A program made the translations under genes and the position numbers. From NCBI GenBank assembly GCA_016210205.1, contig JACQUO010000023.1, positions 153,711 to 217,710 on the forward strand: a stretch of DNA of 64,000 bases, read 5' to 3'. Numbering within the stretch: position 1 is the stretch's first letter; each line of letters begins with the position of its first letter. Shown in pieces: positions 8,045 to 53,271 of the stretch. Under the pieces are notes generated by a model. It was given only the letters and a program-made list of their open reading frames with translations. It had not been told where the DNA came from and did not search any database. Source of the DNA: Chloroflexota bacterium. Its GTDB lineage: Bacteria > Chloroflexota > Dehalococcoidia > JACQUO01.

Positions 8045-8830
8045 TTGGAAATCATCGCCACCAACCTCAACTTCCGCAGCCGCAAGCTGGCCACCGCCGC
8101 CAAAGAGGGCCACGTCGAGGCGCTCCAGCAGCTGGCGCGGGACTGCGCCGCCGCCGGCGCCCACCGCCTGGCCATCATCCCCCAGCCCGGCCAGCACAAC
8201 GTGGTTGACCTCATGAGGTTTGCCATCGACGCTGTCCAGAAAGCCGTCGACCTGCCCCTAGCCCTTTGCTGTGACGACCCCAAGGCTCTTCAGGCCGCAC
8301 TCAAGGCCTGCAAGCGCCCACCTCTCATCAACTATATCTCCTTCGAGCAGGAGAGGCTGGACATCCTGCCCATGGCCGCGGCCGCCCGCGCCGAGGTGAC
8401 CCTGCTGGCGGTGCAAAAGGGCATCCCCGACGATGTGGACGAATCCTTACACCTGGCCTCGGTCCTGGTGGGGGCGGCGGCGGAGGCCGGCATACCGCAC
8501 GAGCGCATGTATTTGGACCCCATGGCGGTGCATGTCACCGCTGATGTAGGGCAGCACCATGCTCAGACTGTGCTCGAGTTCTTCCGCGCTCTGCCCGACG
8601 CCTTCGACCCGCCCGTGAAAGGCGTTTGCTGGCTCTCCAACATCTCCGCGGGCGCCCCGCGTCAGGTGCGCCCCGCCATCAACAGCGTGTTTCTGGCCAT
8701 GCTGGCAGGGTTGGGAGTTTCCACCGTCTACATGGATGTCCTGGACCGGGAGACCATGCGCTCCCTCCGGGTTATCCGCGTCCTCCAGAACGACCTGCTG
8801 TACTCCGACGCCGAGGCGCATATACGGTGA
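8045..8830 (+). CDS. Pterin-binding TIM-barrel protein, AcsE (methyltetrahydrofolate:corrinoid methyltransferase)-like, divergent
   Basis: Colinear with the AcsE fold: PLIN, GIP, YLDP, LSNIS, IN..FLAM; TTG start after AGGAGG. Confidence 0.75.
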   Translation: MEIIATNLNFRSRKLATAAKEGHVEALQQLARDCAAAGAHRLAIIPQPGQHNVVDLMRFAIDAVQKAVDLPLALCCDDPKALQAALKACKRPPLINYISFEQERLDILPMAAAARAEVTLLAVQKGIPDDVDESLHLASVLVGAAAEAGIPHERMYLDPMAVHVTADVGQHHAQTVLEFFRALPDAFDPPVKGVCWLSNISAGAPRQVRPAINSVFLAMLAGLGVSTVYMDVLDRETMRSLRVIRVLQNDLLYSDAEAHIR

Positions 8831-48477: not shown

Positions 48478-51246
48478 CTAAGACATCTCCTCCCAGTTGC
48501 GCCCCGCTTTAAGGTCCACCTTCAGGGGCACCGCCAAGGGCAGGGCCTGAGGCATGAGCCCCAGGCTCAGCACCTGGGGCATGAGCTCCTGGGCCAGGGC
48601 CCGCACCACCTCCACCTCGCCAGGGGGCACCTCGAAGAGGAGCTCATCGTGAATCTGAAGCAGCATACGGCTCTGCAAGGCCCGCTCCCGGAGGGCGCGG
48701 TGCATGGCGAGCATGGCCAGCTTGGCGATGTCCGCCGAGGTGCCCTGGATGGGCATGTTGATGGCCTGACGCTCGGCCTCCTGCCGGTCCAGAGGCCGCG
48801 CCGAGTTGACCTCGGGGATGTAGCGGCGCCGCCCCAGGAGGGTCTGGACATAGCCTCGCTCCCGCGCCTGGCGCTTGGTGTTTTCGAGATACTCCAGCAC
48901 CCCAGGGTAGCGCTGGAAATAAGAGGTGATGAACTGGCGTGCCTCCTCCCGGCTCAGCTCCGTGGCCTGGACCAGGCCATAGTCCGTCATGCCGTAAATC
49001 ACGCCGAAGTTCACCGTCTTGGCCACCCGGCGCATGTCTGGGGTCACCGCGCCCGCCTCCACGCCAAAGACCTGGGAGGCGGTGGCCCGGTGGATGTCCT
49101 GGTCGGCCCGGAAGGCGGCGAGGAGGTTGGGGTCCTGGGAGAAGTAGGCCAGCACCCGCAGGTCTATCTGGGAGTAGTCGGCGGAGAGGAGCAGCCAGCC
49201 CGGGCGGGGGATGAAGGCGCGGCGCACGGTGCGCCCCTCCTCAGTGCGGATGGGGATGTTCTGGAGGTTGGGCTCGCTGGAGGAGAGCCGTCCCGTGGCG
49301 GTAGCCGTCTGGTTGAAACTGGTATAGAGCCGCCCTGTCTTGACATCCACCTGTGCGATGAGGGCATCCACATAGGTGGACTTGAGCTTGGCCAGCTGTC
49401 GGTAGTCCAGGAGGGCCTTAAGCACCTGGCGGGCCTGGGGTGTGATGTCCTGCCCGATGAGGGACTCCAGGACCGCGGCGTCGGTGGAGTAGCCGGTCTT
49501 GGTGCGGCGGGCCCGAGGCAGCTGCAACTCCTCGAAGAGCACCCGCCCCAGGGCCTGGGGAGAGTTAATCTTGAAGATGTGGCCGACGGTGTTATAGGCC
49601 GCCAACTCCAGCTCCCCCATCCGCGCCCCCAACTCGTGGCCGTAGCGCTCCAGCAACGGCACATCCAAGGCGATGCCGTCTCGCTCCATCTGCACCAGCA
49701 CCGGCACCAGGGGCGTCTCCACATAGCTGAAGAGGTCCCAAAGGCCCTCCCGGCGCAGCTCCTCCTCGAAGATAAGCTTCAGTCGGAGGGTGAAATCGGC
49801 GTCGGCGCAGGCATAGGGAGCCGCGGCCGCAATGGACACCTCATCCATGCCCCGTTGCTTCTTCCCAACGCCGATGAGGTCGGTGATGGGGGTCATCTCC
49901 ATCCCCAGGCGGGTGAAGGCCAGGGACTTCAGGCCCACGGAGCGCTCCCCCAGGAGGTGGGCGGCAATCATGGTGTCGAAGGCCAGAGGCTCAAGCTCGA
50001 CCCCGTGCTCTGCCAGGGCCGTCATGTCGAACTTGGCGTGGTGGGCCACCTTGCCCTTCCTGGTGTCGCGGAAGTATGGCCGCAAGGCTGCCAGGGCTGT
50101 CTCCAGCGGCAGCTGCGCCCCCTCCCGGTGGCCCACGGGGACATAGAAGGCCTGGCCCGCCTTCACAGCCAGGGACAGCCCGACGATGGCGGCACGGCGG
50201 GGCTCCAGGCTGGTGGTCTCCAGGTCCACCGCGAACTGGGGGGCGCCCTCCAGCACGCGGCAGAGGACCCGCAGGGATGCGGCGTCGGCCACCACCCGGT
50301 AGTCACGCTCCGCGACGGCGAAGTCAAGCGGCAGGGTGGGAGCATGGGCCGCCTCTTGGCCCTTGGGCAAGCGGGGGAGGAGAGCCGAGAACTCCAACTC
50401 CTGGAAGAGCTGCCGCACCGCATCCCCTGGGGGATGGAGACGGCAGGCCTCCAGGTCCAAGGACACCGGGAGGTCCCGGACGATGGTGGCCAACTTCTGG
50501 CTGCGCTCCGCCTCCTCCCGATGGGCCAGGAGCAGGTCCCGAACCCGCGAGGGCGTCACCTCACCGATGCGCTGGTACAGGGCCTCCAGGCTGCCGAACC
50601 GCTGGAGGAGGGCGATGGCCGTCTTCTCCCCGATGCCTTTGACCCCCGGGATGTTGTCCGAGGCATCCCCCATGAGGGCCTTGAGGTCCACCATCTGCCC
50701 CGGGCCGAGGCCACCATAGCGCTGGCGCACCTGGGCCTCGTCGTAGAGAATGGTATCGCTGAAGGGTCGCATGGGCCTGGGGGTGAGGATACGCACCCGC
50801 GGGCCCACCAGCTGGACAGTGTCCAGGTCGCCGGTGACGATGATGGTGTCGATGCCCTTTTGGGCCGCCTGCTCCGCCAAAGCCCCCAGGAGGTCATCGG
50901 CCTCGTACCCCTCGCGTTCGAAGACAGGGATGCCCCAGGCCTCCACCATCTGATGCACCCGGGGGAACTGCACCCGGAGCTCATCGGGGGCCCTGGCGCG
51001 GTTGGCTTTGTAATAAGAAGCCAGCTGGTGGCGGAAGGTGGGCCCCGGGGCATCGAAGGCGGCAGCCGCATGGGTGGGAGCGTAGTCCGCCAGCACCTTG
51101 AGGAGCATCTGGGTAAAGCCAAAGACCGCAGCGGTGGGCTCCCCGCTCTTGGTGGCCAGGGACCGCTGGATGGCGTGAAAGGCCCGGTGCACCAGGGCAT
51201 GCGAGTCCAGGAGCACCAGCAGGGGCGTCTTGGCTACGGCTTCCAC
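48478..51246 (-). CDS. polA: DNA polymerase I
   Basis: 5'-3' exonuclease (EADD, GD.SDNIPGVKGIGEKTA), 3'-5' exonuclease DLET, ADYSQI, AKTVNFG, QIHDEL; GTG 51246 after GGAGGAG. Confidence 0.97.
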   Translation of the reverse strand: MEAVAKTPLLVLLDSHALVHRAFHAIQRSLATKSGEPTAAVFGFTQMLLKVLADYAPTHAAAAFDAPGPTFRHQLASYYKANRARAPDELRVQFPRVHQMVEAWGIPVFEREGYEADDLLGALAEQAAQKGIDTIIVTGDLDTVQLVGPRVRILTPRPMRPFSDTILYDEAQVRQRYGGLGPGQMVDLKALMGDASDNIPGVKGIGEKTAIALLQRFGSLEALYQRIGEVTPSRVRDLLLAHREEAERSQKLATIVRDLPVSLDLEACRLHPPGDAVRQLFQELEFSALLPRLPKGQEAAHAPTLPLDFAVAERDYRVVADAASLRVLCRVLEGAPQFAVDLETTSLEPRRAAIVGLSLAVKAGQAFYVPVGHREGAQLPLETALAALRPYFRDTRKGKVAHHAKFDMTALAEHGVELEPLAFDTMIAAHLLGERSVGLKSLAFTRLGMEMTPITDLIGVGKKQRGMDEVSIAAAAPYACADADFTLRLKLIFEEELRREGLWDLFSYVETPLVPVLVQMERDGIALDVPLLERYGHELGARMGELELAAYNTVGHIFKINSPQALGRVLFEELQLPRARRTKTGYSTDAAVLESLIGQDITPQARQVLKALLDYRQLAKLKSTYVDALIAQVDVKTGRLYTSFNQTATATGRLSSSEPNLQNIPIRTEEGRTVRRAFIPRPGWLLLSADYSQIDLRVLAYFSQDPNLLAAFRADQDIHRATASQVFGVEAGAVTPDMRRVAKTVNFGVIYGMTDYGLVQATELSREEARQFITSYFQRYPGVLEYLENTKRQARERGYVQTLLGRRRYIPEVNSARPLDRQEAERQAINMPIQGTSADIAKLAMLAMHRALRERALQSRMLLQIHDELLFEVPPGEVEVVRALAQELMPQVLSLGLMPQALPLAVPLKVDLKAGRNWEEMS

Positions 51247-51428
51247 ATCTTCTCCTCCCCCAAGTCCCGGGGGGTCTGAACCCCATTGTAGCAGATGGAG
51301 ACAGGGAGAAAAACTAACATTGCGTCGTCCTGGAGGTCTATCGCAATTTGAGGATGCTATGGGCGAAGCCCGCCGCAGACGGATTAGGAGTGTCCCCATC
51401 TCTCTACCTCCCCCTCACTGACAGACAT

Positions 51429-51550
51429 GGGGGACCCGAGGGTGCAGGGGGAACGCCCGCCGCAGGCGGGCCGGGGGCCTGGGGGTGTCCCCCAGTCTTC
51501 CTTACCTTCCCCCTCTCCTTCCAGGAGAGGGGGAGAAAGGGGGTGAGGTG
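51429..51550. repeat. Palindromic repeat element, inverted orientation (copy 6)
   Basis: GGGTGCAGGGGG...CTGGGGGTGTCCCCCAG...CCCCCTCTCC..GGAGAGGGGG..GGGGGTGAGG. Confidence 0.65.
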
Positions 51551-51598
51551 TCCAGAAGACTGGGAGATTTAGGGGGTGGAAAAGCGTCTCTAAAGGCC

Positions 51599-51651
51599 TT
51601 GACAACTGGGCTGAGATACACTATTCTGAATTATCAGCATATACTGATAAT
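51599..51651 (+). promoter_or_regulatory. Promoter and palindromic operator of hgcC-like/arsM unit
   Basis: TTGACA-17 nt-TATTCT, then ATTATCAG-N6-CTGATAAT perfect IR at 51630-51651. Confidence 0.7.
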
Positions 51652-51681
51652 GATGAAGACCGGCTCTAAAGGAGGCGAGAG

Positions 51682-51957
51682 ATGACAACCAAACTTGCTG
51701 CGGAAACCTGTTGCGAGGCCGCGGGGGTGGGCCTCACCTCCCTCAAAGTTGAGTGGGTGATAGGCGTGGACGAGCGGGGGCAGATGGTCCTGCCCAAGGA
51801 GCTCCGGGAGAAGGCCAAAATTAAGGCCGGGGACAAGCTGGCGGTGGTGAACTGGGAGAAGGACGGCCAGGTGTGCTGCATCACCCTGATTAAGACCGAT
51901 GAGCTGGCCCAGATGGTGCGGGGGCTTCTGGGCCCACTGGCTAAAGAGTTAATCTGA
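51682..51957 (+). CDS. hgcC: AbrB/MazE-fold protein with two CC pairs, resembling HgcAB-associated protein HgcC
   Basis: VDERGQMVLPKELREKA.I.AGDKL AbrB signature; ETCC and VCCITLIK; RBS AGGAGG; family match recalled, not searched. Confidence 0.75.
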   Translation: MTTKLAAETCCEAAGVGLTSLKVEWVIGVDERGQMVLPKELREKAKIKAGDKLAVVNWEKDGQVCCITLIKTDELAQMVRGLLGPLAKELI

Positions 51958-51974
51958 AAGGAAGGGCTCACCTC

Positions 51975-52727
51975 ATGAAGAAGCAGGACAAGTTAATCAA
52001 GACCTTTGTGAGGATACAATATGCGGCCCTGGCCCAGAGGGCGGGGAGTTGCTGCGCCCCCGAAGCAACCAGCGCCCGCCCGGAGGGGGCCGCCTCGGTA
52101 GAGCAGCTCTACGGCAAAGAGAAGCTGGCATCCCTCCCCGAGGGCGCCACTGCCATCGCCGCCGGCTGCGGCGACCCCACGGCCTTGGCGGAACTGAAGC
52201 CAGGGGAGGTGGTGCTGGACCTGGGCAGCGGCGGCGGCATCGACTGCCTTCTGGCGGCGGAGCGAGTCGGCCCCCGGGGCCGGGTCATCGGCATCGACCT
52301 CACCCCGGAGATGGTGGAGGTGGCCCGTCAGAATGCCGCCGCCGTGGAGGCCAAGAATGTGGAGTTCCATCTGGGGGAGATAGAGAGCCTGCCTTTAGAG
52401 GAAGCCTCCGTGGATGTAATCATCTCCAACTGCGTCATCAACCTTTCCCCCGACAAGGACGCTGTCTTCCAGGAGGCCTTTCGGGTGCTCCGGCCCGGGG
52501 GGCGGCTGGCGGTGGCCGACATCGTGGCGCTGGGCAAGCTGCCCACCACGGTGCGGGGCAGTATGGCCAGTTGGGCTGCCTGCGTGGCCGGGGCATTGGA
52601 GAAAGAGGAATACCTGGGCAAGATACAGGCAGCCGGCTTTGAGGTGACGGGCATCACCGAGACCCCCGTCAACCTCAAGGGGATAAGGGTGGCCAGCGCC
52701 AAGATTAAGGCCACCAAGCCGTTTTGA
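51975..52727 (+). CDS. arsM: Arsenite S-adenosylmethionine methyltransferase
   Basis: [39 protein letters not shown] conserved Cys set. Confidence 0.9.
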
Positions 52728-52851
52728 TTGAATGGGAAAAATAAAAAAAGGACATGGTCGGCCCCCATGAATCTAAAAGGGGCCACCCTGCCCTTTTTTG
52801 TATTAAGCCCTGCGCCCTGTGCCGAAGGAGGGCGCTCCGAGGAGATGAGCC

Positions 52852-53121
52852 CTAGGTCATCACCGGCTGCTGGCCGGGGTGCAAGCGCCGCCACTTGGCC
52901 AGGAGCTGCTCCTTGGTCTCCTTGCGGCCGGGGTCAGGGACGCAGGCATCCACGGGGCAGACCTCCACACAGCGGGGGGTAGCGTAGTTGCCCACGCACT
53001 CCGTGCACTTGGCATGGTCGATGACATAGACCGGATTGCCCTCGGCGATGGCGTGGTTGATGTTGCACTCCGGCTCGCAAGCGCCACAGTTGATGCACTC
53101 TTCTGTTATCTTATAGGCCAC
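52852..53121 (-). CDS. 2[4Fe-4S] ferredoxin, YfhL-like
   Basis: [11 protein letters not shown] and CTECVG....PRCVEVCP; GTG after GGAGG. Confidence 0.92.
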
Positions 53122-53271
53122 CTTGCACAAACCTCCAGTTTTTTTGATTTTGGGCCAGGCTCGGGTTAATTAAGCTCCACCTCCTCTCGCGCCCTTTGCG
53201 GAAAGGCTCTCGGGCCTCAAGCCCACATGTTAGATTATACCATCAGCGCCGTCAGGCGCAAAAGGCCCGGC

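Follow-up and report, generated by a model that had tools for sequence, protein, structure and literature searches.

HgcC, a cysteine-bearing AbrB-fold protein, as the probable regulator of an arsM operon in a Dehalococcoidia bacterium

Discussions of arsenic methylation in anaerobes usually centre on the repressor ArsR. In a 64,000-nt stretch of a Chloroflexota bacterium of the class Dehalococcoidia (assembly GCA_016210205.1, contig JACQUO010000023.1, positions 153,711 to 217,710; hereafter the window), an arsM gene directly follows a small gene, hgcC, whose product combines an AbrB/SpoVT-type fold with two pairs of vicinal cysteines. The question raised by this locus is which protein controls the pair, through which DNA element, and in response to what signal. 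The evidence points to HgcC itself, probably acting through an array of short palindromic boxes laid over the promoter.

The hgcC-arsM unit and its operator boxes

Both genes lie on the plus strand. hgcC (51682..51957) encodes 91 amino acids behind an AGGAGG ribosome-binding site (51670..51675, read from the sequence, 6 nt before the ATG), and arsM (51975..52727, 250 amino acids) starts 17 nt past the hgcC stop. A consensus scan placed a sigma-70-type promoter upstream, with a TTGACA -35 hexamer (51599..51604) and a TATTCT -10 hexamer (51622..51627) on the plus strand separated by 17 nt. It matches the consensus at 10 of 12 positions and is the sole such site in 51300-53200, the mean in shuffled sequences being 0.4. 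The G+C content of the promoter and operator stretch is 42–44%, compared with 64.5% genome-wide. Beyond arsM, a hairpin at ~52744..52800, with an A-run on one side and a U-run on the other, has a folding free energy of -25.8 kcal/mol (z -2.68; 1 of 200 shuffles was equally good). The promoter, the arsM gene 17 nt downstream of hgcC and the terminator-like hairpin had all been reported in a first-pass annotation of the window, made from the sequence without database searches, and all are present as described. Minus-strand sites resembling terminators were likewise picked up near 52744-52800 by a terminator scan, and the hairpin is likely a two-way terminator, common to arsM and a convergent gene for a YfhL-type 2x[4Fe-4S] ferredoxin (52852-53130, minus strand; NF033683, 101 bits). 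Judged by its sequence layout, hgcC-arsM is a self-contained two-gene operon.

The predicted operator spans the region from the -10 hexamer to beyond the likely transcription start. It consists of a chain of three C-W-G cores (W, A or T) in exact 9-bp steps, starting at 51626, 51635 and 51644. Box 1, TCTGA (51625..51629), overlaps the -10 hexamer, while box 2, TCAGC (51634..51638), and box 3, ACTGA (51643..51647), are the left and right arms of a perfect palindrome, ATTATCAG-N6-CTGATAAT (51630..51651), which comprises these two boxes with their flanks. The palindrome has no other match in the window even at 2 mismatches, and none of 100 shuffles matched it. Its presence over the likely start site had been noted before, together with the suggestion that it is the operator. 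It is indeed part of a conserved operator, but the unit of that operator is the TCWGA box at 9-bp phasing and not the 8-6-8 palindrome. Five chains of at least three boxes occur in the 1.42-Mb genome, of which the hgcC array is the only AT-rich consensus one; the other four, considered as further operator arrays, are GC-rich and look like chance.

HgcC matches the NCBIfam model NF040962 (HgcAB-associated protein HgcC) with 114.4 bits (cut-off 70), residues 21-89 corresponding to model positions 2-70 of 70. It also matches TIGR01439 (34.6 bits, cut-off 28.3) and Pfam PF04014 (MazE/AbrB; 29.8 bits, cut-off 24.7), the latter being its only Pfam match. These matches bear out its earlier description as an HgcC-like AbrB-fold protein with two vicinal cysteine pairs, which are found in ETCCE (C10, C11) and QVCCI (C65, C66). 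A Pfam scan detected no winged helix-turn-helix (PF01022 or PF12840), so HgcC is not an ArsR/SmtB protein, though it may work like one. In an AlphaFold2 model based on 38 homologues (mean predicted local distance difference test score 75), residues 21-90 are confident and residues 1-19 disordered; the top Foldseek matches, over ~50 columns, are SpoVT, AbrB, Sso7c4 and MazE (2w1t, 1yfb, 5itm, 2l66, 2mru), all with a beta-alpha-beta-beta core. This protein conforms to every invariant column of the 38-row alignment, including DERGQMVLPKE.R and VCC (C65, C66). The segment expected to read DNA (D30, R32-K39, R42) is invariant in the 38 homologues, which fits the invariance of the box and which we count in favour of HgcC as the protein that binds it. 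The core CC (C65, C66) is likewise invariant in the 38 homologues; it is intact in 74 of 78 HgcC proteins, and the other 4 retain one cysteine. The tail carries one or two CC pairs, both in proteins that precede ArsM and in those that precede HgcA. A near-length search for relatives of HgcC returned 3692 proteins, and some family members have been named 'antitoxin PrlF' by other annotators.

By homology, the second gene is arsM, encoding an arsenite S-adenosylmethionine methyltransferase homologue (NF008823, 309.2 bits, cut-off 263), with a SAM-binding Rossmann domain (PF13847, 135.5 bits). Its closest solved relatives are the arsenite methyltransferases 5evj (E 3.9e-31), 8xt7 and 4fr0. C65 (GCGDP), C153 (SNCVIN) and C203 (ACVAGA) are invariant in 33 homologues and align with GCGNP, SNCVIN and ECLAGA of 5evj; we take them to be equivalent to C72, C174 and C224 of the algal enzyme, its As(III)-binding cysteines. 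The protein has an N-terminal CC (C26, C27), and in the 33-homologue alignment it lacks the second consensus CC pair and ~28 residues near the C-terminus. Weaker NCBIfam matches of this ArsM include ArsM/DUF2284 fusion selenoproteins.

The box array across related loci

For comparison, 80 related loci were taken from species-representative genomes as the best-scoring relatives of this HgcC. hgcC was found in 77 of them; L037, L071 and L083, in which the motif search missed the gene, were dropped, and L043 and L063, with too little upstream DNA, were left out of the upstream density count. TCAG/CTGA sites are about four times as dense in the 100 nt upstream of hgcC (0.0346 per nt) as elsewhere in the loci (0.0082 per nt). 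At least two such sites are present upstream of hgcC in 76 of 76 regions, and the distances between them peak only at 8–10, 17–19 and 26–28 nt. The box unit has the consensus T-A-W-T-C-W-G-A-W, that is, a palindromic TCWGA in an AT-rich frame, with C-W-G cores exactly 9 nt apart.

Chains of C-W-G cores at exact 9-nt spacing were counted in 78 regions upstream of hgcC (the 77 loci and this window). At least three in-phase boxes were found in 51 of the regions and at least two in 70, compared with at least three in just 3 of 3930 control windows of 120 nt from the same loci. Two of these three control matches look like real extra arrays. Among metagenome loci, at least three boxes occur in 21 of 29 that have hgcC and in 1 of 29 that have a close arsM without hgcC (26 of the latter have one box or none). 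Thus, the array follows hgcC, not arsM. The first-pass annotation had suggested looking for a conserved motif upstream of homologues, and the box array does recur there with hgcC, by arsM or by hgcA. Its further idea, that the operator would also inform mercury-methylation loci, is in line with the presence of the same array upstream where hgcA follows hgcC.

AT-rich arrays of 3–4 boxes were also seen downstream of arsM at two loci (L057:5334-5352 and L069:5716-5743). In L057 the extra array lies ahead of a DUF1326 gene, which may be a further target of HgcC. At L140, a 3-box array lies ~70 nt before arsM (start 538) and no hgcC motif was found in the available stretch; HgcC may act in trans at this locus.

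The position of the array relative to promoter elements is as regular as its phasing. A recognisable -35/-10 pair with a TTGACA-type -35 was found in 49 of 61 bacterial hgcC loci, and in 43 of these 49 the first box core is no more than 5 nt to either side of the final T of the -10 hexamer. Fifteen loci were classed as archaeal by the host names in their records. All 15 have a TATA-like element, and in 12 of them boxes stand on both sides of it, the element filling one 9-bp slot of the array. Such placement fits a mechanism in which RNA polymerase in bacteria, or TBP/TFB in archaea, would be occluded. Both the box and the DERGQMVLPKE.R segment of HgcC are near-invariant across bacteria and archaea.

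Partner genes of hgcC and the host genome

The gene right after hgcC is ArsM-like in 50 of the 77 loci and encodes HgcA in 24 (NF040863, 367–467 bits). The three remaining loci have a nitroreductase-like gene, another methyltransferase gene and a gene cut off by the contig end, respectively. No toxin gene follows hgcC in the 77 loci, and its neighbours in the window are arsM and the opposite-strand polA; this is not the arrangement of a type II antitoxin of the MazE/PrlF kind. Nor is there an adjacent ArsR gene by hgcC in the 77 loci. Taken together, an operator that travels with hgcC and is absent from arsM-only loci, and the lack of an adjacent toxin or ArsR gene, make it very probable that HgcC binds the boxes and thereby regulates its own operon.

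A quick tree was built for 77 HgcC proteins (L063, too short, was left out), in which 39 of 74 inner branches are unresolved. The partner label changes 9 times on this tree, with supported branches forcing at least 2 changes, compared with ~20 for shuffled labels. Near-identical HgcC proteins are found with either partner, as in the sister pairs L020/L056 and L013/L055, whose members differ in this respect. ArsM and HgcA are mechanistically unrelated, and their common feature is confined to thiophilic substrates. Behind arsM no third gene is conserved: 23 candidates were of mixed kinds, two encoding enoyl-CoA hydratase and one each DUF2284, DUF1059, DUF1326, an M48 peptidase and others, and 10 were without a Pfam match. 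The DUF2284 gene (predicted metal-binding; L055:5125-5664) and the DUF1059 gene (L040:5159-5407) each follow arsM at a single locus. Adjacency to hgcAB, the source of the HgcC name and external to the model, is not seen in this window, where the next gene is arsM. Since arsM is the majority partner in the sample, the name 'HgcAB-associated' is too narrow; membership of the protein in the HgcC family is not in doubt.

The assembly (1.42 Mb, 87.5% complete) contains one hgcC and one ArsM over cut-off. No HgcA over cut-off was found in this 87.5%-complete genome, the best match scoring 67 bits against 275 required. Weak matches to the CdhD family (window 8045-8830 and G000:C9:13321-14166; 261 and 281 amino acids) are far below HgcA in size and score. 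A profile search of the genome found no Acr3, and an ArsB candidate at C18 is more plausibly a CitMHS transporter (235.9 versus 89.8 bits). No HTH_5 match lies within the window. Four occur elsewhere in the genome, and none of them adjoins an ars gene. Two belong to ArsR/SmtB-type genes, whose neighbours are a disulfide oxidoreductase gene and DsrE/F genes; the others lie in a protein of 224 amino acids with a cysteine-bearing C-terminal domain and in one of 162 amino acids. The statement that the unit lacks arsR and hgcAB therefore stands for the window and for HgcA over cut-off, but has to be amended for the four HTH_5 genes elsewhere.

In a sample of 401 genomes of the phylum, HgcC over cut-off was detected in 13, all of them in this organism's class (the sample includes four genomes flagged as unpublished, G145, G038, G227 and G173, none among the 13). 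Among the 12 other HgcC-positive genomes of the class (96–100% complete), several hgcC genes were read in a wrong frame by a loose pattern, and for these we used the downstream ArsM matches and box counts only. An ArsM-like gene directly downstream and at least three boxes upstream were found in 12 of 12, and none of the 12 has HgcA over cut-off. HgcA over cut-off occurs in 4 of 401 genomes sampled from the class. The 13 HgcC-positive genomes all pair hgcC with arsM and lack HgcA over cut-off, and HgcC of this lineage is therefore a companion of arsM, unconnected with hgcAB. The 12 sequencing runs listed with matching DNA are all groundwater metagenomes, and no RNA run was among those listed.

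Upstream of the operon lies polA (48478-51399, minus strand). The first ~50 residues of its listed open reading frame are unlike polymerase sequence, and polA probably starts at a more internal codon, in which case the polA-hgcC intergenic region would measure ~350 nt. A GC-rich element of ~90–105 nt (51470-51575), ~25 nt upstream of the hgcC -35 hexamer, contains nested inverted repeats (51488-51500 with 51555-51567; 51508-51519 with 51523-51534). In the 1.42-Mb genome, at least ~40 blastn matches to it, of 84–100% identity, are spread over at least 20 contigs, ~17 of the listed matches covering at least 60 nt, and it resembles an intergenic repeat of the repetitive extragenic palindromic (REP) or miniature inverted-repeat transposable element (MITE) kind. 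The same intergenic region has a 22-nt direct repeat (GGGCGAAGCCCGCCGCAGACGG-like, 82% identical) at 51361-51382 and 51448-51469, 87 nt apart.

A proposed mechanism, its alternatives and known systems

The explanation we prefer, to which we assign a probability of roughly 0.6 as a whole, is that HgcC is an autorepressor on the boxes, that a metal(loid) releases it, and that arsM is thereby switched on. HgcC would be a dimeric DNA-binding protein of the AbrB/SpoVT (swapped-hairpin) type, presumably with one dimer on each palindromic TCWGA box, and would probably bind cooperatively to the three boxes that run in 9-bp steps from the -10 hexamer across the transcription start. Bound boxes would block RNA polymerase, so that HgcC would repress both its own gene and arsM; that it represses rather than activates is what we infer. 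As(III), and possibly methylarsenite or Hg(II), might bind the cysteine pairs, namely C10 and C11 in the disordered N-terminal tail and C65 and C66 in the last beta-strand of the DNA-binding domain, whereupon HgcC would leave the DNA and the methyltransferase would be made. A metal(loid) ligand is suggested because a thiophilic substrate is the only feature that can be named as common to ArsM and HgcA; we give even odds to the HgcC cysteines binding a metal(loid) as the signal. The first-pass annotation had proposed a repressor that replaces ArsR. The conserved operator upholds HgcC as the operon's own DNA-binding regulator, and repression itself would be the presumed mode of its action. In other organisms hgcAB may be controlled by the same protein family through the same operator, and judging by the arrays upstream of hgcC-hgcA pairs, the same regulator logic very probably applies to many hgcAB loci.

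Several observations weigh against this explanation. The 9-bp period is shorter than one helical turn, and 27 of the 78 regions have fewer than three boxes at exact 9-nt spacing. Foldseek E-values are weak (0.025 at best), yet one fold recurs in all top matches, with probability up to 1.00. Just before KVE, the family consensus has a second N-terminal CC pair that is missing from this HgcC, so the tail cysteines may be dispensable. The ratio of arsM to hgcA partners is biased towards kin of this HgcC by the way in which the 80 loci were chosen. Finally, conservation of the cysteines fits a redox switch, an iron-sulfur (Fe-S) or Zn site, or a structural role equally well.

This last point leads to an alternative that we consider unlikely, in which HgcC is a repressor whose cysteines sense redox state through a thiol-disulfide switch, or hold Fe-S or Zn, and which would confine two oxygen-sensitive methylation systems to reducing conditions. 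All the operator evidence is equally applicable to it. The hosts among the 80 loci, by the names in their records, belong to groups of anaerobes (methanogens, Syntrophales, Dehalococcoidia, Nitrospirota), and a dimer, with 4–6 cysteines from each chain, would have enough ligands for a cluster. However, hgcC is paired with arsM (50/77) or hgcA (24/77) and with nothing else recurrent, which points to the substrates of these enzymes, and a single consensus array in this genome speaks against a wider redox regulon. It is highly improbable that the boxes are bound by another factor, such as an ArsR/SmtB protein encoded elsewhere, with HgcC an orphan MazE/PrlF-type antitoxin or a nucleoid-type protein. 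The two ArsR/SmtB-type genes of the genome and the 'antitoxin PrlF' naming of family members would agree with such an arrangement. Yet those two genes adjoin disulfide oxidoreductase and DsrE/F genes and not ars genes, no toxin gene follows hgcC in the 77 loci, and the boxes accompany hgcC in many phyla of both domains but are missing from arsM loci that lack it.

HgcC could also be a regulator and a metallochaperone in one, as ArsD is: its vicinal cysteine pairs would capture As(III) or Hg(II) and pass it on to ArsM, at the N-terminal CC motif, or to HgcB/HgcA. We regard this as improbable. The HgcC tail (SCC-x6-9-CC) resembles the N-terminal SCC-x-SCC of adjacent ArsM proteins, and in three protein clusters (P0127, P0128 and P0129; 377–381 amino acids) one chain contains both an HgcC domain and a complete ArsM; one of these fusions was confirmed by L100:1480-2634, an uninterrupted reading frame preceded by 3 boxes. 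But the fusions are rare: 3 clusters among 9 longer matches against the 3692 near-length proteins, and 1 of 33 metagenome loci having both domains. Relatives of the fusions at 53–67% identity are two separate genes. The P0128 junction resembles stop read-through into the intergenic region, with the ArsM start methionine retained, and the fusions as a group look like incidental stop-codon read-through. The numbers of CC pairs in the tails of HgcC and ArsM, in this order, were (1,1) in 11 cases, (1,2) in 15, (2,1) in 6, (2,2) in 16 and other combinations in 3, some start codons being miscalled; no clear tracking between the two tails was found in these counts. Prediction of an ArsM-HgcC complex, which was run without controls, gave a score of 0.00 against a mark of 0.32, and speaks neither for nor against binding.

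If HgcC is an autorepressor released by a metal(loid), it would share its proposed logic with ArsR/SmtB proteins, as a small autoregulated repressor encoded first in its operon, with a thiophilic metal(loid) on its cysteines and arsM or hgcAB as the target. It differs from them in fold, matching PF04014 only and neither HTH_5 nor HTH_20. The ArsR operator is a single imperfect inverted repeat, whereas that of HgcC is an array of 5-bp palindromic boxes in 9-bp phasing. The swapped-hairpin fold is shared with AbrB, SpoVT, MraZ, MazE and Sso7c4. Arrays of short repeats are bound by others in this superfamily, MraZ using direct repeats, and we know of no metal(loid) or thiol sensing by AbrB, SpoVT, MraZ, MazE or Sso7c4. 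Among these proteins, only HgcC has the invariant VCC in its last strand and a tail with CC. ArsD is an arsenic metallochaperone and a weak ars repressor. Like HgcC, it is a small ars-operon protein with a regulatory role and with vicinal cysteine pairs as candidate As(III) ligands; its fold is unrelated (HgcC has no ArsD match in Pfam), and there is no ArsA partner here. While the HgcC box is very strict, AbrB binds varying DNA sequences (PMC4022651).

A gene of the hgcC type, called prlF, mazE or abrB, has been reported to precede hgcA directly on 14 contigs as well as in 8 of 31 confirmed methylators, and to be a putative regulator of hgcAB (PMC10349881); methanogen strains with the gene are also listed in that study. 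The first-pass annotation had described such a protein as annotated only as HgcAB-associated and without a function. The name is indeed that of NF040962, but a regulatory role had already been proposed in that study. The protein described here is likewise a full-length family member, and differs in that its partner is arsM and its genome is without HgcA. In the passages of PMC10349881 that deal with the prlF/mazE/abrB gene, neither a link to arsM nor an operator is mentioned. Among the matches listed by full-text literature searches, we found neither the hgcC-arsM link nor the box operator in print. The HgcC family is catalogued but uncharacterised. Control of hgcAB expression and the purpose of hgcAB are named as knowledge gaps in PMC10349881, where an ArsR-like regulator of hgcAB in Pseudodesulfovibrio mercurii ND132 is also cited.

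In its broadest form, our proposal is that HgcC founds a new structural class of metalloregulators, namely AbrB-fold sensors that would bind thiophilic metal(loid)s by vicinal cysteines in both bacteria and archaea, act through a phased TCWGA array placed on the -10 hexamer in bacteria and bracketing the TATA box in archaea, and serve as a common switch for arsM and hgcAB, the two methylation systems known in biology for toxic elements. We hold this tentatively, at somewhat less than an even chance. The database name 'HgcAB-associated' misleads for most of the sampled members. One small regulator with a clear operator that is easy to synthesise, before arsM or hgcAB in many phyla and both domains, offers a direct experimental handle. 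Regulated methylation genes could be marked in genomes by the box array, which could also underlie a biosensor. If the proposal is true, a new fold would be added to those of metal-sensing repressors, and the signal that induces arsenic methylation would also induce mercury methylation in many methylators, a point relevant to the native function of hgcAB.

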